DNA of 64,000 nt from Bacteroides sp. (GCA_014802435.1 JAAVCG010000032.1:65839-129838), one strand, 5' to 3'. Counted from the first letter of the stretch, positions 3,062-15,678 are shown. Program-made: numbers and translations. Notes: a model not told the origin generated them from the sequence alone.

Positions 3062-3838
3062 TCAGACCCAGGGCCATGAAGCTATGTATTCCATTAGATC
3101 AGGTGCTGACATGGCACAAACTCTGCAATATTCACGTTTCGTTTTCAATACTAACGGAGAATAAGAGTTTGAGCTATTGATACCCCTGGGATGGTTCAGA
3201 TGAAATATTTTACCCATGATTCTCTTGGGCTTATGACCTAAAATATCAAGTCGGTGTTCTCTTTCAAAATCTTCCGGACCCCATCCCGGGAAATTCTCGT
3301 TCTCCCAACCGACTGTTTTATATCGGTTAACATTTACTAAGTATGCGCCTCCAACAGATATAAAACCAAACATTAGCTGCTGATTTCCGTCTATGGCTTC
3401 AAATATCTTAGGGTTGAGTCTCTGACGGAAAATATTTGACATATAAGCATCGCAGCCAATGAATCGGCCATCATAAGGGAATACCATGATTTCATCCGAA
3501 AACAAGAGTAGTTTATTTGCTCGGATGAGTTGATTTTTCGGGACTATTACGTCAGAGTCTATTACGGCCGCATTTTGAGTTTTTACTCTGCGAAATTCTT
3601 CATTTATGTAATGGGTCCGATGGAAAATCGGGTTTTCATCCTGAATAAAAATATAGTCAACTTCCGGGAACTCAGTTCGCATTATTTCGCGTAATTTTGG
3701 CTTTGAGTCCGCTTCAAGGAGGACAGTCGGCGCACCTTGTGTTAGCTCTCTGTAATAACTCAGAGTCGCCTTGACGTTTTCAAATCGAGTTTCCGAGTCA
3801 ATTCTGACAGTAAATATTATAGTTAAGTCTTTAATCAT
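3062..3838 (-). CDS. GT-A fold glycosyltransferase (galactosyltransferase-like)
   Basis: Likely start is MIKDLTIIFTVR at 3838, overlapping the upstream stop by 8 nt. It has a DxD-like IDSDVIV and FPGWGPEDFE, which resembles the WGxED motif of GT2/GT7-type enzymes. The gene is AT-rich. Confidence 0.7.
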   Translation of the reverse strand: MIKDLTIIFTVRIDSETRFENVKATLSYYRELTQGAPTVLLEADSKPKLREIMRTEFPEVDYIFIQDENPIFHRTHYINEEFRRVKTQNAAVIDSDVIVPKNQLIRANKLLLFSDEIMVFPYDGRFIGCDAYMSNIFRQRLNPKIFEAIDGNQQLMFGFISVGGAYLVNVNRYKTVGWENENFPGWGPEDFEREHRLDILGHKPKRIMGKIFHLNHPRGINSSNSYSPLVLKTKREYCRVCAMSAPDLMEYIASWPWV

Positions 3839-4733
3839 CGTAGAGTAATTTATCAAGGCCAAGGGCGAATCCAACTAATTGTGAAGACGAACAATTTGAA
3901 TTTGAGATCAGACCTATAAAGTCATGACACAATTTTTTGCAAAATGTAAATACTGACAAGAAGAATTCTTTTGAATCATAGCAAATCGAGAGTCTCCCGG
4001 CATCATTGAGTAAATTTAGTAGTGTCTCTGTGTTGACTTCGTTAGGATCAATACTTACTTCTCTGCTGCATTGCAAGTCAAGCATGATGATGTCTTGCAG
4101 ATAAGAATGAGTACGGTCAAATGGCGCCATTTTAACCATTTCTTTAATTTGTTTTGCCTTGTGAGGATAGACTCCATGTTTTTCTGCTAACGCAGCAAAC
4201 GCTCCAATGCTATGTAGAATGCCGGCTGTCAATTCCGTAGGAGAGTAGACGGAGGGAATGGAAGTTGTCAATATTTTCTCACAATCGCATAGCCGAAAAA
4301 TAATTTGTTCCTCCAAAACATAACGTTCTATTGTATCTTCATCTGTGTTCAGTAGAGACATCATAACAACCCCAAACGGATAAAATCGGTCTCTTAAATC
4401 AAGCTGGATTGGTGCATTGACAAAGTATGTGCTGTTTTTCTTTATGATATTATAAGCCATGTGCAACAGTCCTTCAGGCTTCTCCAGTATTTCTTCCTTA
4501 ATTAATCTGGCAAGAAGTAAGAGAAACGCCATATCACCTCCCAATAGTCCCATAGGAAGATCCCGATACTCTCTGGTTAATCTATGCAACTGTTTTACGG
4601 CATAGTCAGGAGGATTAACTGCTGAATCATTATTAGCATATTCTTTTAGTCTGAAATATATTAGTCCAAGATCAATCATAGGGGACTGATATTTTGTTAA
4701 AAGCTTTAGGATAATAGAGAGAAGATGTTTCAT
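3831..4733 (-). CDS. Helical-repeat protein of unknown function with LanC-like G-x-x-x-G-x-x-G repeat signatures
   Basis: 300-aa ORF whose ATG overlaps the OMP stop (TAATG). Repeat motifs are GLLGGDMAFLLLLA, TAGILHSIGAFAALA and LVGFALGL. No CHG or WCxG zinc-ligand motifs are present. Confidence 0.6.
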   Translation of the reverse strand: MKHLLSIILKLLTKYQSPMIDLGLIYFRLKEYANNDSAVNPPDYAVKQLHRLTREYRDLPMGLLGGDMAFLLLLARLIKEEILEKPEGLLHMAYNIIKKNSTYFVNAPIQLDLRDRFYPFGVVMMSLLNTDEDTIERYVLEEQIIFRLCDCEKILTTSIPSVYSPTELTAGILHSIGAFAALAEKHGVYPHKAKQIKEMVKMAPFDRTHSYLQDIIMLDLQCSREVSIDPNEVNTETLLNLLNDAGRLSICYDSKEFFLSVFTFCKKLCHDFIGLISNSNCSSSQLVGFALGLDKLLYDD

Positions 4734-7681
4734 TATTGAGGTAAATGTTTTGGTTGCTTATTGATTCGGTATTGAATATGGAAAAGAACATACGAGGGAA
4801 TAACGTTACTTATGGTTTCAGTGCGCGCTTCCGATGTAATCCTATACGAGATTCCTGTCAGCTGTTGAAGGATATCATATGCGTCAATTGTGAATGTCAA
4901 TACTCCATTCATAATAGACTTACTGAGGCGTGCATTCCAAATCCAGTCTTTTCTATTGATGAGAGTATTCAGGTATCCATCACGATATTCCAATGACAGA
5001 TCTGTTGACAAGCTCCAGTTATTCGGTAGATTTAAAAAAGAGGATATCGTGCTTTTATATTGACGAGTGTGGTAGTTTATTATTCCATTAATTTTATCTC
5101 CATTTTTGTCTGAGGCTATATCCGCTTTGGTTATCCATTCGAATCTCATGTTTTTATTGGCCCAAGAGAGACCAAATTCTCCATCCACTTTATGGCGAGT
5201 ATCTTCCCTCATGAAGGTTCTATTCTCGAGTAAGACACTGGCATACCCGAGATTACGAGACGCCCCTATCCCGGCAGATAATTGAAAAGGCCCGTTGCGT
5301 CTGAAGGTGGTGGAAAAACCGTAATGGATGTTTCCGGACCATGAGCCGGTTTTATTTACATATTGAATGACCTGTAAACCTGTCGTTTCGTTGAATTCAG
5401 AAGCCTGGATTATTGTACGGAAATCGTGGTCGTAGGATATATATATGTCATGCCTTGTTACCTGTTGATAGTTATATTCCGTTTGAAATTGAGCAAATGC
5501 TGCCATGGTGGGTTTAAGATTGGTGTTGCCTATTTCTATAAGCAAAGGATTGATTATCGGGCGTGAAATCATCTGAAGATAGTTTGGAGAAGATGTATCC
5601 AATCCTGTCCTAAATGTTATTTCTGTAGAAGACCGGCTTACACCCGGATTTGCCCTTGATAGCGTAATTTCGGCATCAGCAGATGGTAAGATAAACTTTT
5701 TATGAATATTCTCTTGTTGACCATATTCAAAAATTGAGAAGTTGTTCTCATTAAATTTTATCACTGCATTGACTTTGAATTGATACTTCAAGTTAGGGCT
5801 ATTGCGAATTGAAGTAGTATGTTTGATAACGGATGCTTGCAGGGTGTGATTATTATTCAGAATTAGATTTTGTCTGCTTCTATCCAAGTTTAATATGCCA
5901 ATATTAAAGACCTCATATGTGTCCTTATCTTTTAAGCTATGAAAGGTATATTTTAGTGGAATTGACAAGTTCTTATTCGGGTAATATTTAGTGAGAGTTG
6001 CAAATGTTGTCCAATTCGCTGAGTATGTTGGCTTTTGATTTATTTTATCGTTAGCTTGACTGGAAGTGTCTTCCATTGGATATCTTATAAATGAATCGTT
6101 TAGGCCATGAAAAAATCTCCACGTATTTGATGTATTTAATCTTAATGTTAGTGATAGCGGATTCGTCCCTCCATGTAATTTTATCATACTCTCGATAAAA
6201 ATCCATAGGAAAGCACGGTGTCCTTGATTAGAAATGTTTTGTTTTCGTAGATTAAGTGTGTTAGAATTTTCAGACTCGGATTCTAAAAGTGAGTCTTCAA
6301 TATATTTTGCTGAAATATCTTTGCGTTCGGAATTAAATATTCCGGACAGCAAGTTTGTTTTTGTATTGATATTGGAAAAATCAAATGAAATGAAACCCTC
6401 GAGATTGGCTTTAGAGTCAAATCTATAATTGAATTTATTCCAAGTCTTTATTGAAAGAGCCTTATGAGTTGAAGATTTGAATGAATATTCAAAATTATTT
6501 GAACTGCCTAATAAATTCTGCCGCATGGTTTTGTCATGATATAACTCTTTTGAATTTTCAGCTTCTAAACTTCCCTTTAATTCCCATACTGATTCGGATG
6601 TGGATAGATTATAGTTTAAGCCTCCTCCGTAGCGTCGGGTAACACCAAGGCCCATTTTCTCAATTGACCATGCACCGTCATTCTTTCCCGGAGGAGTCGC
6701 ATCGCTTAGGTTATTGGTATTCATGTAAGCTGAACAACCGAGATTCTTGGTAAATCCCATCCCAAATAACTTGCCGAGAAATCTATTATGGGTGCCATAT
6801 CCGGCATTTACGTTGGCAAACCATCCGTAAGAATACTCCCTTTTTAACTTTACATCCATTACCAGTTGAGAGTCGTTAATCACATCTTTCCCCAATAGAG
6901 AAGCCATTTTCCCCTCTTTTGAGTAACACTGAATCTCTTTTACTGTATAAGCGCCAAGATTCTCCAATGCAAGGGTATTTTTCCCGTTAAAAAGATCTCT
7001 ACCATTTATCAGTAGAGTTCCAACCGGCTTATTATTTACAGTAATCTGACCTCCGGGGTTTAATTTTACCCCCGGCATTTGCCGGAGCAAAGCGTCTAAC
7101 ATTGACCCGTCTGCCGTGATAAATGCATCCGCATTATATACTAATGTGTCACCCTTATGATAAAACTTTACAACTGATGCTGTTACTTCTATCTCCTTTA
7201 ATTGCTTTGATTTACGCTTATTCAATACTGCGTCGGGCAATCTGTAATCCTTACCTGCTGTCTTTAAATCTTTGTGTGAAACTTTTATCCATACCGGTTC
7301 ATAGTCTTCTGCTAAAACATAACTCCCGGCAGCTGGATTTCCATTGTTCTTGTGATAGCCTTCAACCTTAAACATATAATATGAAGGTTTTATTTTTATT
7401 TCACCTCCAAAGTATTTCATTCCCTTCTCGATTATTGGAGTGAACAACTCTCCATCAAATATCAGAGAATCTTCCTCTCCGGGGATCGCGATTGAATCAC
7501 ATAAGTAAACCGTAATCAATCCCTGAGAAAAAGATTCCTTTGTTACGCCGTTAAGCACACGCCCTTTGACAAAAATAATCTTCCCATCATTCCAGTCTTG
7601 ACAAATCGAAATGATTGAAATGAATAAAAAGCATATTGTAATGCAATAGCGTTTAATAATATGATTGAGTAGTAAATCCAT
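4733..7681 (-). CDS. Outer-membrane plug + beta-barrel protein (TonB-dependent-receptor-like, with an N-terminal carboxypeptidase-regulatory-like domain)
   Basis: It has a signal-like N-terminus (the ATG at 7681 is preferred over the TTG at 7687). Plug-like region: DGSMLDALLRQMPGVKLNPGGQITVNNKP..LLINGRDLF. A long alternating beta-strand region ends in an aromatic-rich C-terminus. Confidence 0.8.
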   Translation of the reverse strand: MDLLLNHIIKRYCITICFLFISIISICQDWNDGKIIFVKGRVLNGVTKESFSQGLITVYLCDSIAIPGEEDSLIFDGELFTPIIEKGMKYFGGEIKIKPSYYMFKVEGYHKNNGNPAAGSYVLAEDYEPVWIKVSHKDLKTAGKDYRLPDAVLNKRKSKQLKEIEVTASVVKFYHKGDTLVYNADAFITADGSMLDALLRQMPGVKLNPGGQITVNNKPVGTLLINGRDLFNGKNTLALENLGAYTVKEIQCYSKEGKMASLLGKDVINDSQLVMDVKLKREYSYGWFANVNAGYGTHNRFLGKLFGMGFTKNLGCSAYMNTNNLSDATPPGKNDGAWSIEKMGLGVTRRYGGGLNYNLSTSESVWELKGSLEAENSKELYHDKTMRQNLLGSSNNFEYSFKSSTHKALSIKTWNKFNYRFDSKANLEGFISFDFSNINTKTNLLSGIFNSERKDISAKYIEDSLLESESENSNTLNLRKQNISNQGHRAFLWIFIESMIKLHGGTNPLSLTLRLNTSNTWRFFHGLNDSFIRYPMEDTSSQANDKINQKPTYSANWTTFATLTKYYPNKNLSIPLKYTFHSLKDKDTYEVFNIGILNLDRSRQNLILNNNHTLQASVIKHTTSIRNSPNLKYQFKVNAVIKFNENNFSIFEYGQQENIHKKFILPSADAEITLSRANPGVSRSSTEITFRTGLDTSSPNYLQMISRPIINPLLIEIGNTNLKPTMAAFAQFQTEYNYQQVTRHDIYISYDHDFRTIIQASEFNETTGLQVIQYVNKTGSWSGNIHYGFSTTFRRNGPFQLSAGIGASRNLGYASVLLENRTFMREDTRHKVDGEFGLSWANKNMRFEWITKADIASDKNGDKINGIINYHTRQYKSTISSFLNLPNNWSLSTDLSLEYRDGYLNTLINRKDWIWNARLSKSIMNGVLTFTIDAYDILQQLTGISYRITSEARTETISNVIPSYVLFHIQYRINKQPKHLPQ

Positions 7682-7779
7682 ATGCAAAATTAATAAAAAA
7701 AATTGGGCAATTCGCGGTTTTAATAGTGAATTAACTTTTTTTTAACTGTAAATATTTGCATATTTTTAATTTTGATTCG

Positions 7780-7813: not shown

Positions 7814-8293
7814 ATGAAACATGCAAAAATTTCCCTTTCGACTCTAAGCGATGACGAGATGCGTTCAGATGTGGCTATGCCTCGAGGTAATACTTCCGAT
7901 TACCTAAAAAAGCATCTGAATATTACGGAGGCTGGTTCTTCTGACGAGCGGTGCTTTGCGTCTTTGGTGTGCCCTCCTGGAGATGGAACAAATGGTACTG
8001 TCCAATGCAGTGGCGCTGCAGGGTCGTGTGAGGGATATACTTCCAGTGGCATTTATGTGGGAGTAAAATGTGGTGATTATTCTGAAGAGTGCTCTAAAGC
8101 TGTTTTTCAAGGGTGGGATTGCTCTGAAGTATATGATGAACTGGAAGACAAGGAGAAAGCTTGTTGCAATAAGGAGGTGTCGGATTCATGTGAATACATG
8201 TATCATACGCTCTCCGGTCAGTCGGGATACGTACGAGGCTGGTGTAAATATAGATTCGCTGCACCAGGGCTATATTGCTCTGAAACTCGTTAA
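7814..8293 (+). CDS. Cysteine-rich (12 Cys) precursor-like protein with a hydrophilic leader and no Sec signal
   Basis: The N-terminus MKHAKISLSTLSDDEMRSDVAMPRG resembles Bacteroidetes LSxxEMxxIxGG-type leaders. All 12 Cys lie between residues 47 and 155. It is the first gene of an operon with an oxidoreductase fusion. Confidence 0.7.
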   Translation: MKHAKISLSTLSDDEMRSDVAMPRGNTSDYLKKHLNITEAGSSDERCFASLVCPPGDGTNGTVQCSGAAGSCEGYTSSGIYVGVKCGDYSEECSKAVFQGWDCSEVYDELEDKEKACCNKEVSDSCEYMYHTLSGQSGYVRGWCKYRFAAPGLYCSETR

Positions 8294-8360
8294 CTATACT
8301 AATTGATCTTTTGGCAGGACTTTATTAATTCAAATAGTATTGTTAAGCCTATTCGATTAA

Positions 8361-9932
8361 TTGAATTGCTATGAATGCGATATGTACTCATTTATTACCC
8401 TTATTCTTTCTAATATAGGTGTTAAGTTTTCACATCAGACTCTTAAACACTTATTTGAAACTCGTTTCTTTGATAATAGTTTGTATTCAATTGCTCAAAT
8501 TCTTTCAAAGTACAATGTCGCCTCAGTCGGAGTACGATTTAGTAAAGAATCAGTTGTTGAAGATGAGTATTGTCCATTCGTAGCTCAAATCGGAGGTTTG
8601 TGGACTTTGGTAACACGCGTGTCTAATGATTCGGTGTTCTACTATGATGCCATACATCCGGCAAAAGAGAATAAAATCTCCAAAGATATCTTTATCGGTC
8701 AGAGTAATGGAAAGGCATTATTAGTCTTGCCTGATAGGTATTCAGGTGAGCTGAATTATGTACATAATCATCTTTGTATTATTAAAGACAGAATAAAGAA
8801 AATTGTCATTTTCAGCATGGGAATTATTTTGGTTTCTTTGGGACTGTTAAAGAATCCGTTGACTGTTAAATGGTCGTATTATGCTCTTCTGGCTCTTAAT
8901 ATTCTTGGATTAGTAATTTGCTTTTTATTATTACAAAAGCAATTGAATATTTCTAATAGATTTACGGATAAATTATGTTCGTTTATTAACGATAATCATT
9001 GTGATTCGGTTACTGATTCTGCCGCTGCCTCGGTTTTGGGGATGGTTAAGTTGAGTGAGATTGGCTTCGGATTTTTTACTGTCAACTTGGTAGTCCTATT
9101 ATTTGTTCCTCAAGTTATTCCTTGGCTCGCAGTATTTTCTGTATGTGTGTTGCCTTTCTCGTTTTGGAGTATCTGGTATCAACGATATCGTGTAAAAAGT
9201 TGGTGTACTTTATGTCTGATTGTGTTAGCCGTAATGTGGATTCAATCCTGTTGTTATTTTGTCGCAGGATTTCTTTCTCAATTAGCAAGCGAATCATTAA
9301 TTGATGGTATCAATTGTTTTGTTGGGTATGTATTTGTTGTGCTGATGATTAATTATTGTATGCAAGTAATTGAGAAATCAAAAAATGCTGATTATTGGAA
9401 GCAGAGGTATGAAAGTATTAAGTCTGTTCCGACTGTCATAGACGCATTTATGGGGCTGGAGAATGGTTATGATATATCGCCGAATGTTTGTTCTGCAATG
9501 ATTTTCGGAGACCCGGATGCTGAACGTACGATTACTGTATTCAGTAACCCATATTGTGGGCCATGTGGGCAATTGCACAATATAATTAAGGATTTCCCTG
9601 GTGGATGTGTAAAGATTCAATATGTTATGACTTATTTTAGTGAAGATAAATCAGCCGTGAATAAGGCTATTATTGCAGCATATAGTCAACTCGGATGGGA
9701 AAAGACTTGGGAGATAATGACTGAATGGTATAAGTCAGACAAGAAGGATGGTGTAAAATTTTTTGAACGATTTGGTCTCAATATGGATAGGTCTGATATT
9801 GAAAAAGAGTTTAAGAAGCAGAAAGAATGGCCTATGGGGAAGAATTTTAGAGGAACCCCTACTATCCTTGTTAACGGAAGAGAACTTCAAGGTCCGTATA
9901 CGATTGAAGATTATTTTTATTTACCGAGATGA
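8361..9932 (+). CDS. Tri-domain fusion: C39-peptidase-like domain (probably non-catalytic) + VKOR membrane oxidoreductase + thioredoxin/DsbA-like domain
   Basis: It has VKOR loop cysteines CSFINDNHC (residues 206 and 214). The CXXC motif WCTLC (282-285) sits at the start of a transmembrane helix. A thioredoxin YCGPC motif (399-402) and a cis-Pro loop RGTPT are present. The N-terminal ~135 aa are C39-like (LYSIAQILSKYN.., YYDAIHP). The start is ambiguous between TTG 8361 and ATG 8382. Confidence 0.85.
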   Translation: MNCYECDMYSFITLILSNIGVKFSHQTLKHLFETRFFDNSLYSIAQILSKYNVASVGVRFSKESVVEDEYCPFVAQIGGLWTLVTRVSNDSVFYYDAIHPAKENKISKDIFIGQSNGKALLVLPDRYSGELNYVHNHLCIIKDRIKKIVIFSMGIILVSLGLLKNPLTVKWSYYALLALNILGLVICFLLLQKQLNISNRFTDKLCSFINDNHCDSVTDSAAASVLGMVKLSEIGFGFFTVNLVVLLFVPQVIPWLAVFSVCVLPFSFWSIWYQRYRVKSWCTLCLIVLAVMWIQSCCYFVAGFLSQLASESLIDGINCFVGYVFVVLMINYCMQVIEKSKNADYWKQRYESIKSVPTVIDAFMGLENGYDISPNVCSAMIFGDPDAERTITVFSNPYCGPCGQLHNIIKDFPGGCVKIQYVMTYFSEDKSAVNKAIIAAYSQLGWEKTWEIMTEWYKSDKKDGVKFFERFGLNMDRSDIEKEFKKQKEWPMGKNFRGTPTILVNGRELQGPYTIEDYFYLPR

Positions 9933-10600
9933 GTCTCCGAATACGACAAAGAAACTTAATAAACAAACTAGTCTTTCACGCCCTGGATTCACCTTATGCT
10001 TTGGGACTTTTTCATGGGCAAATGGGGATTTTAATTGTTGTTGCTCATTGTAGTAAGCAGTGGGGCTTATCTGAATTAGAGTGTGTTGCAGATTTTTTGT
10101 TTGAGCATATTCGGTTGAACACTAGAAGGGTTGATAAGATTGGATTATCTACGGGCTTGTCGGGTATATGTTGGGGTGTAGAGTACTTGGTTCAGCATGG
10201 TATAATGCCAGGACCGGCAGATGATATTTGTGAGGAAGTGGATGGTAAAATTATGCAGACAGACGTGAGACGCATTGACGATTTTAGTTTAGCAACGGGG
10301 TTAAATGGACTATGGCTTTATGTTAAGGCTCGTATTCAGGGAAATTTGGTTGCGGGATTGCCTTTGCCGTTTGATTTTGTGTATCTAAATGATTGGCAGA
10401 ATGTTTTGACGCAGAATAAGGAACATTTTCCGGTAGATGCTGCGCAGTGGCTCATGGATGCCCGAAAAGGGAGAATTACACCATATGAGCTTAGGTTGCC
10501 CCCGTTTATTCGTCCCATGAGGTGTTGCCCTCAGACCGATTTATCATTGTCGGAAGGTCTTGCCGGATATATTGCATTTCATTATCTGCACGAAATATGA
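9929..10600 (+). CDS. LanC-like helical-repeat protein (about half the length of LanC, no zinc ligands)
   Basis: ATGA overlap with the upstream gene. Four repeats spaced ~48-85 aa apart: GLFHGQMGI, GLSTGLSGICWG, SLATGLNGLW and SLSEGLAGYI. Confidence 0.65.
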   Translation: MSLRIRQRNLINKLVFHALDSPYALGLFHGQMGILIVVAHCSKQWGLSELECVADFLFEHIRLNTRRVDKIGLSTGLSGICWGVEYLVQHGIMPGPADDICEEVDGKIMQTDVRRIDDFSLATGLNGLWLYVKARIQGNLVAGLPLPFDFVYLNDWQNVLTQNKEHFPVDAAQWLMDARKGRITPYELRLPPFIRPMRCCPQTDLSLSEGLAGYIAFHYLHEI

Positions 10601-11823
10601 AACACGTTATTTTTGTTGATGAATATAATAGTTCAATTCAAAACGGTATAGGAACTTTTCGAGATCAGTTGCTTCCTCGTTTAGGTACTTCTTCCGGAAT
10701 TAAGACAACACTGATTTCTCTTAACTCAATGGAATCAGATGTGAAGCGAAGGAAGACTTTGTTTGGAAATGAGCTTAGAATACCTATGGTTAATTCCGGC
10801 AATTGGCGCGGTATTGGAGGGCTAATCTGTCCTGTTCGGAGGACTTATATTCCAGATAGAGATTGGAATGTCTTTATACTGAATCATTCACCTTGTTCAA
10901 ATTTCATTAAGTCGCTTCGGGAGTCATTTCCAAAATCAAAAATTATTTTTGTTATTCATGATCAAGGATGGTGTGCTCCACTGTTGGGAAGCGTCAGTCT
11001 TTTGAAAGATATTCTCTTGAAAAAAATTATTCCTAAAGGGTTTTCGCGTGAGGTTATTAGTCACGTTGTTGAATCCTATAAGGAGGAAGTAGAGATTTAT
11101 TCGAATGTTGATTACATAGTATGCATATCTCGCTCAACTTTTAAGATAGTAGCAGAGGTATATGGCATTAATGAGGCAAAATTACGCCTGATACCTAATG
11201 GATTGGACGCCGATGGATTGTCATTGGAAAATAAGTTGGCTATCCGAAAGAGTCTTGGAATAATGTCACATGAGAAATTAATCATATTCTCCGGGCGTCC
11301 GGCCCGTTATAAAGGGATTGAGCCCATGTTAATAGCTTTTGAGCGTTTACAGAATACAATTCCTGATATAAGGCTCGTTATTTGTGGGAGTTTGGACGGA
11401 TTTGGTAAGTTTAGCCGATTACTTGAGCCCATAGCGTCTCGTGTAACATTTACGGGATTGTTGTCTCAAGAAAAATTGGCTGAATGGTATAAAGCATCTG
11501 ATGTCGGGCTTTTGCCTTCTTATAGCGAACAATTTGGTTATTCTGCCTTTGAAATGATAAAGTATGGGCTACCCATAGTCGTATCAGATGGTAATGGTCT
11601 TCGCGATTTGTTTACTGATGGGGTTAATGCTTTGGTTGCTCAAATTGGTAATGTGATTGATTCAAGTGGTTTTGTCAAGTCTTTAACTCAATCTTTGGAG
11701 ACAGTCTTGACTATGTCTCCTCTACAATTGAGAGGAATCCAAGATGAAGCGAGGGAGCTCTTGACCTATTATTCCACAGAAAATATGGTGCAAAAATATC
11801 TACAAGTTATAAGAGAGAAATAG
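10597..11823 (+). CDS. Glycosyltransferase family 4 (GT-B, Glycos_transf_1-type)
   Basis: ATG at 10597 overlaps the upstream stop (ATGA). The C-terminal half reads FSGRPARYKGIEP...LLPSYSEQFGYSAFEMIKYGLPIVVSDGNG, with the E-x7-E region typical of GT4. Confidence 0.85.
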   Translation: MKHVIFVDEYNSSIQNGIGTFRDQLLPRLGTSSGIKTTLISLNSMESDVKRRKTLFGNELRIPMVNSGNWRGIGGLICPVRRTYIPDRDWNVFILNHSPCSNFIKSLRESFPKSKIIFVIHDQGWCAPLLGSVSLLKDILLKKIIPKGFSREVISHVVESYKEEVEIYSNVDYIVCISRSTFKIVAEVYGINEAKLRLIPNGLDADGLSLENKLAIRKSLGIMSHEKLIIFSGRPARYKGIEPMLIAFERLQNTIPDIRLVICGSLDGFGKFSRLLEPIASRVTFTGLLSQEKLAEWYKASDVGLLPSYSEQFGYSAFEMIKYGLPIVVSDGNGLRDLFTDGVNALVAQIGNVIDSSGFVKSLTQSLETVLTMSPLQLRGIQDEARELLTYYSTENMVQKYLQVIREK

Positions 11824-11877: not shown

Positions 11878-14800
11878 TTATTTGGTTTGGAGGAGCTTGT
11901 TGACCAGGATGGGGCCTTGCATCGTCGGGGCGGAGGTGCGGGCCTTGACGCGGAAGCGGATGGTCAGCAGCGCGCCGGAGCCGTTGACGTCAGGTTTGTC
12001 GCCAATGGTGACAAACGTCGGGTAGAGGACCTTGTCGCCTGAGGTGTGGAGGCGGTCATAGGTCAGGTTCTCCATGTTGGCGAGCAGTTCTGAGGGCTCG
12101 ATGCCAAGGTATTCAATCACTGCCGGGTCATAAGGAATGGCCAGCGAGAAAGCCGCGAGGGCTTGCAGGTCTTGGCCGCTGAGGGTCAGTACCATCTCTT
12201 CACCGGGAGCATAGCTCTTCTTGGAGGATTCAAGGCTCAAGGTGCCTTCAATCGGCTTGATGTTCCATGGGGATTCGATTCCGCCATCGAGCTTGACGGC
12301 TACGTTGGCAATATCAAAGGCGTCGATGAGGCCGTTGCGGTTCACATCGCCCATGCTGACGTAGTCAAAGTCGCCGTCGCCCATGCGCAGACCCGTATAG
12401 TTGGTGTAAGAGGTCAGGTCATTGGAGTCGATTTTGCCGTCTTTGTTGATGTCGCCGGGAATGAATGAGGGTGAGCCGGGAACCTTGAAGACGAAGAATT
12501 CGCGTCCGGAGCCGAAGTTGCCGACGGCTTTGTCAACGTGAAGGCGGATATAGCGCGCCATCGGTTGCCCCTCAAGGGTGATGACCTTGGTGGAGTTATC
12601 GCGAACCCACTGGAAGGGGATTGCGGGGCTCCAGTCTGAGGCATTTTCTGAGAGTTCGATGGTGCCTTCAAGGAGCGTTCCGTTGCCGGCGTTGGTGCGG
12701 GGAAGATATTCCAGACGGTCAAGGGTATTAAATGAGCCGAGGTCCATGACGATGTCCAGCGGCAGGGCGTCTTCGCCATACTTGGTGTGCCAGAGTTCGC
12801 GGTCGTCATGGTCAAAGAGGCGGCTGATGCGTGCGCCTCCCTGGTCAGGGGCTGAGGATGTGGCCGTGATGCCGCTGATGGCAAATTCAAGGGGATTATC
12901 GGCCGTGGTGACGTTGATGGTGGTCCAATCGGAGGCGCCGGCGGGGTTGAGGGCGCGGAGTTTGAACTCATAGGCCGTCTTGGGCTGGAGGTCCTCAATG
13001 AGGAGGGTATTGAAGCCTTCGGCGGTGCCTAAGTTGGTGTATAGCATGCCGTTGAAGAGCATTTCCAGTGATGAGGCATCATTCATCGGGGCCCAGCGCA
13101 GATTGACGGCATATGGCTGAATATCAGCCTCATCGAGTTCCACTTGAGGAGCTTCCGGAGCCGTCAGCGCGAGGCTCGCGGGCATGGCGGCTTGCGGATT
13201 CAGCTCAAAGCCCTTGACTACGCAGCCAACGGCAGTTTCCGTCACTGTCACGGTCGGGAGCTTCACCAGGAGCTGAGGAATGGACGAGGCGGCCTCGTCG
13301 ATGCCCCATTGACCCAGGCGGTTAGCTGAATCGTCAATCATCCATGCGGCATCGTTGGCCTCAAATTCGCTGCGAGTGGAAGCATGGGTGAGCTTCAGCT
13401 TCTTGCCGCCAAGGAGGCCGTAAACTTCCTTGGGTTCAGAGGTGATATTGATGCGCAGTTCGGTTGATTTCTTGTCGGTCATCCCCTGGAATGAACCGAT
13501 AGTGGGGTCAATGGTAACGGTCAGGACGCCCTTATCGGAGAGGTCTGAGGTGATTTTGGTCGTTGCATATTGGCCGAGGCGATAGGCTTCAGTGGTGCCG
13601 TCATCGTCATATTCGGTGATTTCAGACTTGCCCGCGGGCCAGAGCTCATAGATGCGCTCCCAGGATTTGATCTGACTCGGGTTATTGTTCGGATTAACCA
13701 TCGGAATGATGGCGCCGGCCTTGACAAACACCGGGAGCTTCCATAGCGGAGCGTCGAAATTATTCAGGATAATGTCGGCCTCCGGATTGCCATAAGCAAG
13801 GCCGCTGAAATAGTCAAACCATTGTCCGGCGGGAAGATAGATGTTATGGCGCACGTCGTTGCCGGCCTCATCGGAGCGAGTGGGCTGATAAATCGGCGCA
13901 ACGAGCATCGACGGGCCGTAGAGGAACTGATAGCGTGAAGCCGTCCCGTGAGTGTAATCATTAGGATAGTCCAGGAACATGGCGCGAATCATCGGCTGTC
14001 CGTCGATGGCCTCGCGCGCTGCCGTATAGGCATAAGGCATCAGCTCTGACTTGAGCTTGAGGTAGGCGCGGTTAATCCTTTCGGCGTCTTCGCCAAGCTG
14101 ATGGGGATACTTGGGGTTGGCGCCCCAGCCGTCCATATTGAGCTGCATCGGGGTGAACGTTTTCCATTGATAGTCACGGATATTGACGGGGATGTTGCGG
14201 CCGCCGAAAATGCCGTCCATGTCTGAGCTGATGTTCGGCTGACCGGAAAGGCCCGAGCCGATATACGTCGGGATATGGAAGCGGATGTACTCCCATTCGC
14301 CGCCCGTCTGGTCGCCGGTCCAGATTCCTGCATAGCGCTGAGTTCCGGCCCAGCCGTCGAGCGAGATGATGAACGGACGCGCGTCGTTGCCATAGTAAGG
14401 CATGATTTCGCCTACGTCGGCAACTCCGTTAAGGCCAAAGGAATAGCCTGCGCCAACCCAGGCCACGTCGGTCTTCAGAACCCTGACGCCCGCATCGCGT
14501 ACTTCCTTGACGATGTCGCGCTGAAGCAGCGGCTCAACGCCCTCCCTGGGATGGAGCGCGCTCTGAGTCCAGAGGCCGATTTCAACGCCATGTTGCCGCG
14601 CATAATCGCCATATTGACGCAGATTTTCTATATTGCCGTCAAGGCTCGACGTCTGACCATAGCCTGCGCCATAACCATCATTGGGCAATACCCAGCCCAG
14701 GGGCATATCCTTGGCGTTATAACGGTCAATGACGGCGCGTGCCGAGAATTGATAATTGCCCGGAAGCTCGCCGTTGAGGCTCTCCTTGATGCCGCCGTTA

Positions 14801-15678
14801 TCGGTCTGACTTTCTTTATATTTCTTGCCATCCTCAAAGAGAATGCCGTTTTCATCTTCCTTCCAGTAGTCGCGGTTATAGGCGTTCAGATGCCCCTCAT
14901 AGAAACCAAACTTGGGAAGCAGCACGGGATTGCCCGTAAGCTGATAAAAATCATTCAGCAGGCCGACGGGTGTCTCGTCAACCATGATAAATACGTCGAG
15001 ATAAGGCGCGTTATGGCTCAGTGATACCGTGCCCGGCTCTGAGGCACCGAAATCATAGGCTCCGGGCGCAAACGTGTGCCACATCAGGCCGTAACCGTCA
15101 GTCGACCAGTAGAAAGGAGTCGGTGAGGCCACTCCGCCGTCGGTCCATGAATTGGTGTTGACAATGTCAATCAGCTGCCCTTTATGAGAAAAACGGCCGT
15201 TTTGAACTCCGCCGCCATAGAAATATTCGCCCGGATTCTCGCGAAATTGGAGAGTGGTCTTCTTTCCTTCAATTTTGATGGGCGAAACGGTCTGAGCCAC
15301 TTGCTTTCCCGTCCGGAGGTCAGTAACGGTAAACGTCTCGCCCTCAGCCGGAAAATCGATGCTGATTCGTGAAGTCTCAACTCTTACCGAGCCGTCGGCA
15401 TTGTTCTTGACAATGACTGCTCCTGACTCCTTGCGGGGATTATCAACAAGGATTTGAGCCTCCGGACTCGCCTCCGGATTGCGCGGAAGTCCTCCCTGAG
15501 GGTCTGAAAACAGACGGAATACGTTAGGCCCGTAAAAGTCAATAAGCAAGGGAAGTTTTTCCGCCCCTAAATTAACCTCGACGGAATGAGGATTCAAGCG
15601 CAAGGCCGTCGCGGCCGATAGCCCCAACGGAGCCGCAGCGACGACTGCCGCCAGAATAGAAAATTTTAACTTAATCAT
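11878..15678 (-). CDS. Secreted multidomain glycoside hydrolase family 31 protein with FN3, F5/8 type C (discoidin), dockerin-like and cohesin-like C-terminal modules
   Basis: Signal peptide MIKLKFSILAAVVAAAPLGLSA. GH31-type WTGDQTG and KTDVAW catalytic-region motifs. An FN3-like segment. A discoidin-like segment (..RYIRLHV..). Dockerin repeats GDINKDGKIDSND and GDVNRNGLIDAFD. Confidence 0.8.
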   Translation of the reverse strand: MIKLKFSILAAVVAAAPLGLSAATALRLNPHSVEVNLGAEKLPLLIDFYGPNVFRLFSDPQGGLPRNPEASPEAQILVDNPRKESGAVIVKNNADGSVRVETSRISIDFPAEGETFTVTDLRTGKQVAQTVSPIKIEGKKTTLQFRENPGEYFYGGGVQNGRFSHKGQLIDIVNTNSWTDGGVASPTPFYWSTDGYGLMWHTFAPGAYDFGASEPGTVSLSHNAPYLDVFIMVDETPVGLLNDFYQLTGNPVLLPKFGFYEGHLNAYNRDYWKEDENGILFEDGKKYKESQTDNGGIKESLNGELPGNYQFSARAVIDRYNAKDMPLGWVLPNDGYGAGYGQTSSLDGNIENLRQYGDYARQHGVEIGLWTQSALHPREGVEPLLQRDIVKEVRDAGVRVLKTDVAWVGAGYSFGLNGVADVGEIMPYYGNDARPFIISLDGWAGTQRYAGIWTGDQTGGEWEYIRFHIPTYIGSGLSGQPNISSDMDGIFGGRNIPVNIRDYQWKTFTPMQLNMDGWGANPKYPHQLGEDAERINRAYLKLKSELMPYAYTAAREAIDGQPMIRAMFLDYPNDYTHGTASRYQFLYGPSMLVAPIYQPTRSDEAGNDVRHNIYLPAGQWFDYFSGLAYGNPEADIILNNFDAPLWKLPVFVKAGAIIPMVNPNNNPSQIKSWERIYELWPAGKSEITEYDDDGTTEAYRLGQYATTKITSDLSDKGVLTVTIDPTIGSFQGMTDKKSTELRINITSEPKEVYGLLGGKKLKLTHASTRSEFEANDAAWMIDDSANRLGQWGIDEAASSIPQLLVKLPTVTVTETAVGCVVKGFELNPQAAMPASLALTAPEAPQVELDEADIQPYAVNLRWAPMNDASSLEMLFNGMLYTNLGTAEGFNTLLIEDLQPKTAYEFKLRALNPAGASDWTTINVTTADNPLEFAISGITATSSAPDQGGARISRLFDHDDRELWHTKYGEDALPLDIVMDLGSFNTLDRLEYLPRTNAGNGTLLEGTIELSENASDWSPAIPFQWVRDNSTKVITLEGQPMARYIRLHVDKAVGNFGSGREFFVFKVPGSPSFIPGDINKDGKIDSNDLTSYTNYTGLRMGDGDFDYVSMGDVNRNGLIDAFDIANVAVKLDGGIESPWNIKPIEGTLSLESSKKSYAPGEEMVLTLSGQDLQALAAFSLAIPYDPAVIEYLGIEPSELLANMENLTYDRLHTSGDKVLYPTFVTIGDKPDVNGSGALLTIRFRVKARTSAPTMQGPILVNKLLQTK

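Follow-up and report, generated by a model that had tools for sequence, protein, structure and literature searches.

How do Bacteroidales bacteria oxidise the cysteine-rich peptides that they secrete, and can the recognition of a leader peptide be built into the enzyme that does so? This question is raised by a stretch of 64,000 nucleotides from Bacteroides sp. (GCA_014802435.1, JAAVCG010000032.1:65839-129838; hereafter the window), in which one open reading frame (ORF) encodes a C39-like domain, a VKOR core and a DsbA-like domain in a single polypeptide, just downstream of a gene for a small protein with many cysteines. A preliminary description of this DNA had proposed that the polypeptide couples leader recognition to a complete disulfide-generating relay. 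Our analysis supports and extends this idea: the fusion protein is very probably a leader-guided oxidase dedicated to forming disulfides in the adjoining Cys-rich precursor, and its C39-like domain has lost the catalytic residues of a peptidase throughout a large, uncharacterised family. Moreover, the distribution of positive charges suggests that the relay is turned towards the cytoplasm, opposite to the known enzymes of its kind.

Architecture of the fusion protein and loss of the C39 catalytic residues

The ORF list and the translation agreed with the coordinates first given for the gene, namely 523 codons from TTG 8361, an in-frame TAA at 8358-8360 and an alternative ATG at 8382, from which the product would have 516 residues. 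Since the nearest homologs (38-46% identity) begin at the position of M8, ATG 8382 appears the likelier true start. Gene callers have chosen TTG 8361 (the 523-aa P0001 cluster); this choice adds the residues MNCYECD, in which 'ECD' mimics the 'DCG' motif of C39 peptidases, and the Cys concerned (C6) falls one alignment column off the catalytic position.

From the N- to the C-terminus, the protein contains the C39-like domain, an extra transmembrane (TM) helix that we call TM0, the five-helix VKOR core and the DsbA-like domain. The three-part fusion was recovered by Pfam, by a family profile, by an AlphaFold2 model and by Foldseek. In Pfam, VKOR (PF07884) matched residues 175-295 over profile positions 2-129 of 134 (57.4 bits, cut-off 27.5, E=2.2e-15) and Thioredoxin_4 (PF13462) matched residues 380-517 (31.7 bits, cut-off 23.2), while Peptidase_C39 (PF03412) stayed under its cut-off of 22 with 20.9 bits; this last match pairs residues 12-124 with profile positions 18-130 of 133 and begins past the catalytic Cys. 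The AlphaFold2 model, computed from a 62-sequence alignment (pLDDT 92.5, pTM 0.78), has an N-terminal alpha/beta domain followed by six long helices and, at its end, a thioredoxin fold into which helices are inserted; Foldseek ranked PCAT1 at the top of its matches, followed by BdbD and many DsbA proteins. The closest non-identical homolog aligns over 99% of the length (E=1e-148). No NCBIfam model exists for the fusion protein, which gave weak DsbC and DsbG matches only, and a single-sequence search against the sequences of the PDB likewise returned weak DsbC matches only.

The N-terminal domain is clearly related to the peptidase domains of PCAT exporters. Positions 7-156 of the family profile (62 homologs) match residues 30-184 of PCAT1 (4ry2) with E=6e-11, and the peptidase domains of ComA and LahT are found with E values from 1e-6 to 3e-5. 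Its active site, in contrast, differs from that of true PCATs. When 219 family N-termini were aligned with 15 genuine PCATs from related loci, the column of the catalytic Gln was a gap in 206 of the 219 members and that of the catalytic His in 211; a Cys within two columns of the catalytic position was present in only two members and no member had both catalytic Cys and His, whereas Gln, Cys, His and Asp were all kept in the 15 PCATs. The window protein, too, has no intact Cys/His/Asp triad, and its match to the C39 hidden Markov model (HMM) leaves out the catalytic Cys. The groove that holds the double glycine (GG) is degraded as well, by a shortened N-terminal helix and a one-residue deletion in the His strand, and the domain is nevertheless modelled at a pLDDT of around 78-94. 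This state spans members down to 20% identity. The sequences thus point to a conserved C39-like domain that is catalytically dead and is not a C39 peptidase. The preliminary description had suspected a non-proteolytic domain in the window protein; the loss of Gln, Cys and His is in fact a property of the whole family. A C39-like domain without the catalytic Cys is also found in HlyB-type exporters, in which it is presumed to bind the substrate and leave it uncut. A distant member of the family, P0097 (L095 8001-9638), keeps 'DC' at the position of the catalytic Cys and has a His two residues off the catalytic-His column (residues ~14-30 and 85-95), and may stand midway between the active and the dead form of the C39 domain. 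The gene lies on a JGI contig of 2.97 Mb, and genes for a LanC-like protein, a PCAT, a membrane fusion protein and three glycosyltransferases are found in its locus as well.

The cysteines of the redox modules were found exactly where they had been described. The four VKOR cysteines (C206 at nt 8976, C214 at nt 9000, C282 and C285) are invariant in alignments of 31 and of 62 sequences, the membrane pair has the invariant form C-x-[LM]-C, and each of the four has its aligned counterpart in Synechococcus VKOR and in human VKORC1. Profile searches against solved structures were less informative: a VKOR-core profile did not retrieve the solved VKORs from the PDB, its best matches being insignificant ones to DsbB, the full-length profile reached only E=0.23 with 4nv2 (Synechococcus VKOR) and hhalign against the same protein gave E=0.002 with a probability of 14%. 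We assign the core to VKOR on the Pfam match together with the aligned cysteines.

Downstream of the core, C399-G-P-C402 (nt 9555-9566) and a presumed cis-Pro motif T-P-T (P500, nt 9858-9860) bear out the thioredoxin-type motifs reported before. Among the 156 members with a C-terminal domain, nearly all have C-x-P-C, in the variants CGPC, CNPC and CSPC, and T-P-T is kept in 155. The domain is nonetheless not the plain thioredoxin that had been described but DsbA-like: helices 421-482 are inserted between its strands in the AlphaFold2 model, and BdbD and DsbA are its best structural matches (Foldseek, target TM-scores 0.52-0.60). The family profile gives matches to S. aureus DsbA and to BdbD as well. 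A shorter variant of the family (~335 aa, in Muribaculaceae: P0066, P0069, P0081, P0092, P0105 and others) consists of the C39-like domain, TM0 and VKOR without the DsbA-like domain, and shows the same charge asymmetry as the full-length members.

A word-indexed search returned 107 homologs, most of them with 510-545 aa and the same three Pfam domains, in addition to the set of ~335 aa without the C-terminal domain. An exhaustive search with the VKOR core gave 2343 cluster representatives at E<=0.001 and 849 clusters at 50% identity at E<=1e-10. All 150 matches listed in the representative search were members of the same fusion family, and among them the VKOR core nearly always starts near residue 160-175, which indicates that the N-terminal extension is present. 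Short entries that seemed to lack the C39-like domain were considered as a separate architecture and set aside, as they look like truncated gene calls. By a scan of one genome per species, 408 loci were found, almost all in Bacteroidales (Bacteroides, Muribaculaceae, Dysgonomonas, Parabacteroides, Tannerella, Prevotella, Alistipes and Odoribacter). Five contigs (L021, L041, L062, L066 and L067) are labelled as metagenome-assembled genomes of Paenibacillus, Oscillospiraceae, Bacillota, Clostridium and Methanolobus; their members are of Bacteroidales type, and the labels probably reflect binning contamination and not the real distribution. In databases the members bear generic names, 'thioredoxin domain-containing protein' or 'vitamin K epoxide reductase family protein'. 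Our full-text literature search found neither a description of the C39/VKOR/DsbA-like architecture nor genetic data on the family. The only mention that it returned is a one-line remark on Bacteroidetes VKORs with additional N-terminal domains (PMC4555120), and a study that mined 1,136 Bacteroidales genomes for ribosomally synthesised and post-translationally modified peptides does not mention VKOR, thioredoxin or disulfides (PMC10352776).

Membrane orientation of the relay

On which side of the membrane would this relay operate? The extra helix that had been noticed ahead of the VKOR core is confirmed by a hydropathy of 2.14 over residues 138-156 (counted from M8) and by the AlphaFold2 model, in which TM0 lies inside a continuous helix 126-157. 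With six helices, the model places both soluble domains on one side of the membrane. The alignment with PCAT1 runs unbroken through residues 150-184, which are the linker and the first TM helix of PCAT1. In PCAT1, the unit of peptidase domain, linker and TM1 lies in the cytoplasm, from which its helix crosses the membrane outwards; by sequence, the C39-like domain, the linker and TM0 of the fusion correspond to a unit of this type. No signal peptide is present at the N-terminus of the fusion protein, and a mean of 4.0 Lys/Arg falls within the 15 residues that precede TM0.

Lys/Arg were counted in every short loop and flank, in 62 and then in 216 sequences. In the larger set, the mean is 4.0 for the flank before TM0, 0.55 for the TM0-TM1 loop, 0.03 for the TM2-TM3 loop, 0.44 for the TM4-TM5 loop and 2.6 for the flank after TM5; the TM3-TM4 loop, which adjoins the CXXC, has a mean of 2.6 in this set and of 2.6-2.7 over the counts for the family, whereas Synechococcus VKOR has a single Lys/Arg (1) at this loop and human VKORC1 none. 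The side that bears the C39-like domain, the CXXC loop and the DsbA-like domain thus has 9.1 Lys/Arg and the opposite side 1.0, and all 216 sequences are biased in this direction. Two controls were used, whose sequences were verified against PDB 4nv2 and 6wv3. Synechococcus VKOR-Trx is the mirror image of the family, with 9 Lys/Arg on the cytoplasmic side and 1 on the periplasmic, redox side, and the redox side of human VKORC1 is likewise poor in Lys/Arg. In addition, TM1 of 15 Bacteroidales PCATs has 2.1 Lys/Arg before and 0.4 after it, a polarity that is the same as at TM0.

Given the PCAT1-type module, the missing signal peptide, the Lys/Arg before TM0 and the charge asymmetry relative to the controls, we predict that the whole relay faces the cytoplasm, and we consider this likely. 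The VKOR family is characterised by extracytoplasmic active-site cysteines; from the charge counts, those of the fusion family are expected on the other side. These observations do not favour the 'periplasmic-type' label given at first to the thioredoxin domain. The preliminary description had even taken a cytoplasmic position of that domain as contrary to its proposal, and this is the position favoured by the charge counts and by the homology with PCAT1. The idea of leader recognition coupled to a disulfide relay would however still stand and would be strengthened, since leaders exist only before export. The chemistry of an inverted relay is feasible, because engineered inverted VKOR and DsbB form disulfides in the cytoplasm of E. 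coli (Hatahet and Ruddock 2013, as cited in PMC5471842). Bacteroides, for their part, are stated to lack a general disulfide machinery (PMC6671954).

Leader peptides, proposed mechanism and alternatives

What might the C39-like domain recognise? In 83 loci we searched for small ORFs that contain Cys and bear a leader-like motif in their first 38 residues. With the strict motif, a Cys-rich leader peptide was found within 3 kb in 51 of the 83 loci, and variant leaders can be recognised by eye in most of the others. Nearly all of these peptides (58/61) share the strand of the fusion gene; they are 5.6 times as dense as in the far flanks, and their modal Cys count is 6. A typical neighbour reads MKKINLKGISEILSEKELKNVMGG, followed by a 6-Cys core, and two GG-type neighbour precursors pass TIGR04149 (27.5 and 25.9 against a cut-off of 25). 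This nearly constant adjacency to Cys-rich peptides with leaders of the double-glycine type fits the leader-recognition role that had been put forward. In the window, the candidate substrate is a 159-aa protein whose N-terminus carries the leader-like motif KISLSTLSDDEMR (LSxxEM) without GG and without a signal peptide; this putative precursor has no match in Pfam or NCBIfam.

The loci are split into two groups. Those nearest to the window (L001-L033) have long precursors of 100-200 aa, leaders without GG and often an outer-membrane beta-barrel protein of ~1000 aa; the more distant relatives (L034-L084) have short GG peptides and frequently a PCAT. According to the PCAT HMM, 19 of 84 loci encode a PCAT within 10 kb, each of the 19 belonging to these more distant relatives, and members at 20-23% identity keep the gene order of fusion, 6-Cys GG peptide, PCAT and membrane fusion protein. 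The part of the leader that is conserved in every clade is LSxxEM and not GG, which fits a domain that has lost the active-site groove accommodating GG. Many precursors also share a C-terminal module of ~40 residues with four Cys, A-C-x-[GN]-K-x(3,4)-[DG]-x-C-x-W-x(6,10)-G-x-C-x(7,10)-L-[YH]-C, for which no Pfam or NCBIfam match was found. The C-terminus of the 159-aa protein of the window is a version of it (ACCNKEVSDSCEY...GWCKYRFAAPGLYCSETR); further carriers lie at L003 3824-4186, L009 3500-3868, L010 5312-5587, L011 5621-5875, L022 5780-6058, L045 3627-3911 and L068 9369-9668.

We propose that the C39-like domain, which has lost its triad and kept its fold, would bind the LSxxEM leader helix of the precursor, and that the tethered DsbA-like domain would oxidise the core cysteines with its C-G-P-C. 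Electrons might then flow to C206/C214, on to C282-x-x-C285 and finally to menaquinone in the membrane. The module of C39-like domain, linker and TM0, derived from a PCAT, would add one helix and thereby flip the VKOR core with respect to all characterised VKORs. The precursor would be oxidised before its export, with the leader still attached, and in the compartment where the cytoplasmic glycosyltransferases encoded in the cluster operate; a relay in the cytoplasm would still see the leader, since a PCAT would remove it during export. The fused recognition domain would also keep an oxidase that could do harm in the cytoplasm from acting on anything but its cognate substrate. That the protein is both a leader-guided dedicated oxidase and oriented towards the cytoplasm seems moderately probable to us. 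The most complete version of the proposal, a natural and widespread inverted VKOR-DsbA machine in which a dead C39 domain targets leader-tagged precursors and disulfides are formed alongside glycosylation before one-step export, is in our view somewhat more likely than not.

Several points weigh against this proposal. The positive-inside rule is only statistical and AlphaFold gives no sidedness, so the orientation is a prediction; to our knowledge, every characterised VKOR and DsbA acts outside the cytoplasm, cytoplasmic thioredoxin systems would oppose disulfides, and PCAT exporters are not known to pass disulfide-bonded cargo. Reducing proteins of the thioredoxin fold (Trx, ResA, TlpA) typically carry C-x-P-C, unlike the oxidants with their C-P-H-C, and leader binding by the C39-like domain is deduced from homology and gene adjacency. 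Furthermore, the clade of the window (>~33% identity) has no PCAT or other exporter within 10 kb, so that the export step which motivates oxidation before export is not visible there; its leaders lack the GG site, and no protease is encoded nearby.

If the VKOR core were oriented as in Synechococcus, TM0 would put the C39-like domain in the periplasm, where it and the DsbA-like domain might act on exported precursors that still bear their leader; this is the picture implicit in the preliminary description. Every VKOR-Trx and DsbA/DsbB system characterised so far faces the periplasm, the best matches of the DsbA-like fold are periplasmic or extracytoplasmic oxidases, and the thioredoxin-like protein of a bacteroidetocin locus has a signal anchor and presumably sits in the periplasm; the parity of the helices is undecisive, since six helices keep both soluble domains on the same side in either case. 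Yet this conventional orientation would require a folded N-terminal domain of 135 residues to be translocated without a signal peptide and past ~4 Lys/Arg, and it would leave 9 Lys/Arg outside and 1 inside in 216/216 sequences, the reverse of the crystallised control. The N-terminal module is moreover homologous to a cytoplasmic PCAT module, TM1 included, and GG leaders are cut by the PCAT during export, which would leave none to recognise outside. We thus regard the conventional orientation as unlikely. We find it improbable that the C39-like domain serves for docking or regulation, tying the oxidase to a PCAT or another partner or binding the core peptide as the domain of HlyB does, with the choice of substrate made elsewhere. 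The degraded GG groove, with its short N-terminal helix and His-strand deletion, would agree with such a role, as would a retained PCAT-like TM1 that could pack against a PCAT and the persistence of the domain in the clade of the window, whose leaders have no GG; however, the LSxxEM part of the leader is conserved in all clades, the GG-less ones included, and about three quarters of the loci have no PCAT within 10 kb, so that docking to a PCAT cannot be a general role.

The chemistry might also run the other way, in a reductase or isomerase that keeps selected cysteines reduced for S-glycosylation or reshuffles wrong disulfides. The motifs CGPC, CNPC and CSPC are of the reducing type, and the co-encoded glycosyltransferases and LanC-like proteins could act on Cys. 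In VKOR chemistry, however, electrons pass from thiols to quinone and no VKOR is known that delivers them to a thioredoxin fold; a cytoplasmic reductase would need no membrane quinone enzyme, and the invariant set of four VKOR cysteines argues for de novo disulfide generation, which makes this alternative very unlikely. It is hardly credible that the gene is what remains, after 5' truncation, of an active C39 protease fusion, its N-terminus being mere decay and functionless, as might be thought from the in-frame TAA directly ahead of TTG, from the resemblance of 'ECD' to 'DCG' one column off and from the 'DC' that P0097 keeps at that place. The same start without Gln is shared by 206 of 219 members and the lack of His by 211, at identities down to 20%, and the domain is modelled with good pLDDT; this is a conserved state of the family and not a local lesion, and a truncated pseudogene is excluded by the family-wide conservation of the same N-terminus.

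Neighbouring genes and comparison with known systems

The coordinates of the fusion gene, its parts and its neighbours are given in Table 1.

Table 1. Positions in the window of the fusion gene, its domains and the surrounding genes
Feature	Position (nt)	Strand	Basis or remark
Whole C39-like/VKOR/DsbA-like fusion ORF	8361..9932	+	ORF list, translation, homologs
C39-like domain, peptidase fold, catalytically dead, presumed leader-binding module	8382..8756	+	Pfam, profile, Foldseek, residue columns
Linker and extra helix TM0	8757..8852 (hydrophobic core 8802-8849)	+	AlphaFold2 model, hydropathy, PCAT1 profile alignment
VKOR core, five TM helices	8871..9371	+	Pfam VKOR, AlphaFold2 model, cysteine alignment
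VKOR TM1	8871-8942	+	AlphaFold2 model
VKOR TM2	9051-9104	+	AlphaFold2 model
VKOR TM3	9108-9194	+	AlphaFold2 model
VKOR TM4	9207-9266	+	AlphaFold2 model
VKOR TM5	9297-9371	+	AlphaFold2 model
VKOR loop pair C206...C214 (C-x7-C)	8976..9002	+	Translation, alignments
VKOR quinone-site C282-T-L-C285, start of TM4, after the Lys/Arg-rich loop QRYRVKS	9204..9215	+	Translation, alignments
DsbA-like domain, thioredoxin fold	9459..9929	+	Pfam Thioredoxin_4, Foldseek, profile
Candidate substrate, 159 aa, 12 Cys	7814..8293	+	Translation; 88 nt upstream of ATG 8382
223-aa LanC-like half-protein	9929..10600	+	Start overlaps fusion stop (ATGA); 18/18 homologs match LANC_like
GT4 glycosyltransferase, TIGR04157 (glyco_rSAM_CFB) type	10597..11823	+	Pfam Glycos_transf_1, 91.9 bits
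Divergent three-gene block	3062..7687	-	Conserved in nearest relatives
984-aa outer-membrane beta-barrel-like protein	4733-7687	-	Relative's counterpart matches OMP_b-brl_3
300-aa protein with LanC-like Gly motifs	3831-4733	-	Motif resemblance; no Pfam match
270-aa GT-A-like protein	3062-3874	-	Weak Glyco_transf_7C match
1266-aa GH31 glycoside hydrolase	11878-15678	-	F5/8 type C, dockerin and cohesin domains

The homologs of the 223-aa protein encoded directly after the fusion match Pfam LANC_like with a best E of 1.3e-10, and its profile matches only residues 30-146 of NisC and the equivalent part of LanM and LanKC, that is, the N-terminal half of the cyclase. The GT4 glycosyltransferase that follows matches NCBIfam TIGR04157 over its full length (E=8e-86, 288 bits), below the cut-off of 400. 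The LanC-like protein accompanies the fusion in 35 of 84 loci and GT4 does so in 30, sometimes with both as one protein; such LanC-like/glycosyltransferase fusions lie at L019 1314-3266 and L070 12649-14565. In the divergent block, BLAST found the 984-, 300- and 270-aa proteins together with the fusion in 15, 7 and 16 of the 84 loci, respectively, and the homolog with 46% identity has the same gene arrangement, this block included; its co-occurrence suggests that the block may belong to the system. Both LanC-like proteins of the window, of 223 and 300 aa, are too short for cyclases, and each has a glycosyltransferase as its partner. As had been expected for an inactive C39-like domain, the island encodes no leader protease, and none was found in the whole 64-kb window; the same is true of a PCAT. 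With respect to the TIGR04149/TIGR04157 'GG-Bacteroidales peptide system', the precursor of the window has no match in NCBIfam and the glycosyltransferase scores below the cut-off; the window is thus a diverged relative of that system. Further downstream, the GH31 glycoside hydrolase joins a dockerin and a cohesin, a cellulosome-type combination that is unusual in a Bacteroidales-like genome.

The proposed orientation of the relay is new in this work, and the protein combines parts of known kinds, a VKOR-DsbA oxidase and a C39-like recognition domain, in a new way. We know of inward-facing VKOR or DsbB only as engineered tools, every characterised natural enzyme facing away from the cytoplasm. 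If our proposal is correct, the family, with its hundreds of members, would be the first natural case of membrane-quinone-driven disulfide formation in the bacterial cytoplasm, and evolution would have used the same trick as engineers, with one borrowed helix flipping the enzyme. Disulfide formation would then join the leader-dependent tailoring steps of the cytoplasm, a catalytically dead C39 domain would be a new type of leader-recognition element in the biosynthesis of peptide natural products, and obligately anaerobic Bacteroidales without Dsb machinery could install disulfides before one-step export. The proposal gives a testable answer to how Bacteroidales make the many secreted peptides with 4 to 12 cysteines that are encoded beside fusion genes. 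The fusion gene is also a good genome-mining hook for Cys-rich peptides, and the protein could serve as a substrate-gated tool for producing disulfide-bonded peptides in the cytoplasm.

Among known systems, Synechococcus VKOR-Trx (PDB 3KP9, 4NV2/4NV5) is close in its redox part, with a five-helix VKOR, a loop Cys pair, a membrane CXXC and a C-terminal thioredoxin fold in one polypeptide, and with an electron path from the substrate through the thioredoxin fold, the loop cysteines and the CXXC to quinone. The window protein differs from it by the added C39-like domain and one more helix, by a DsbA-like C-terminal domain with C-x-P-C in place of a small thioredoxin with C-P-H-C, and by a Lys/Arg asymmetry that is reversed at every loop and predicts the opposite orientation. 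With the PCAT exporters (PCAT1 4RY2, ComA, LahT), the fusion shares the fold of the N-terminal domain and a sequence homology that extends through the linker into TM1; in contrast to them, it has no ABC transmembrane or nucleotide-binding domain, its Gln, Cys and His are missing and its partner is a redox enzyme. The absence of the catalytic Cys, together with a presumed binding of the substrate without cutting, is common to the fusion and the C39-like domain of the HlyB type.

Glycocin clusters consist of a precursor, a glycosyltransferase, thiol-disulfide oxidoreductases and usually a PCAT (PMC12457901). Those of sublancin (sunA-sunT-bdbA-sunS-bdbB), glycocin F (gccA-F) and thermoglycocin (thg) resemble the window in combining a Cys-rich precursor with a double-glycine leader, a glycosyltransferase and dedicated thiol-disulfide oxidoreductases, and the C-terminal domain of the fusion has BdbD as one of its best structural matches. 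From its genes, the window has the precursor, two glycosyltransferases and the oxidoreductase, with no PCAT in 64 kb. In glycocin clusters, however, the membrane oxidase (BdbB/BdbC, DsbB type) and its thioredoxin-like partner are separate proteins that have no domain for binding leaders and work outside the cell membrane of Gram-positive bacteria, and the glycosyltransferases of the window are GT4/TIGR04157-like and GT-A-like, not of the SunS/GccA type.

The bacteroidetocin loci of Bacteroides and Phocaeicola (Coyne et al. 2019) also belong to Bacteroidales and likewise encode a Cys-containing GG-leader peptide, a PCAT and a thiol oxidoreductase; deletion of the latter attenuates the toxin, which needs it for full activity (PMC6671954). 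We recovered bacteroidetocin B loci from human gut metagenome contigs by means of the published cloning primer. One region is complete (L094 3800-7418, contig ULUC01021622.1), with four genes for a 221-aa multi-TM protein, a 57-aa GG peptide with 4 Cys, a 173-aa TlpA-like thioredoxin (C-D-L-C, N-terminal anchor) and a 707-aa PCAT. The fusion can thus be ruled out as the bacteroidetocin oxidoreductase, which is the signal-anchored 173-aa protein without VKOR and without a C39-like domain, of a different family and probably facing the periplasm. Finally, the engineered inverted VKOR and DsbB (Hatahet and Ruddock 2013; CyDisCo variants; cited in PMC5471842) resemble the predicted relay as quinone-linked disulfide generators that face the cytoplasm; they are laboratory constructs, whereas the family described here would be natural, widespread and equipped with built-in substrate recognition.

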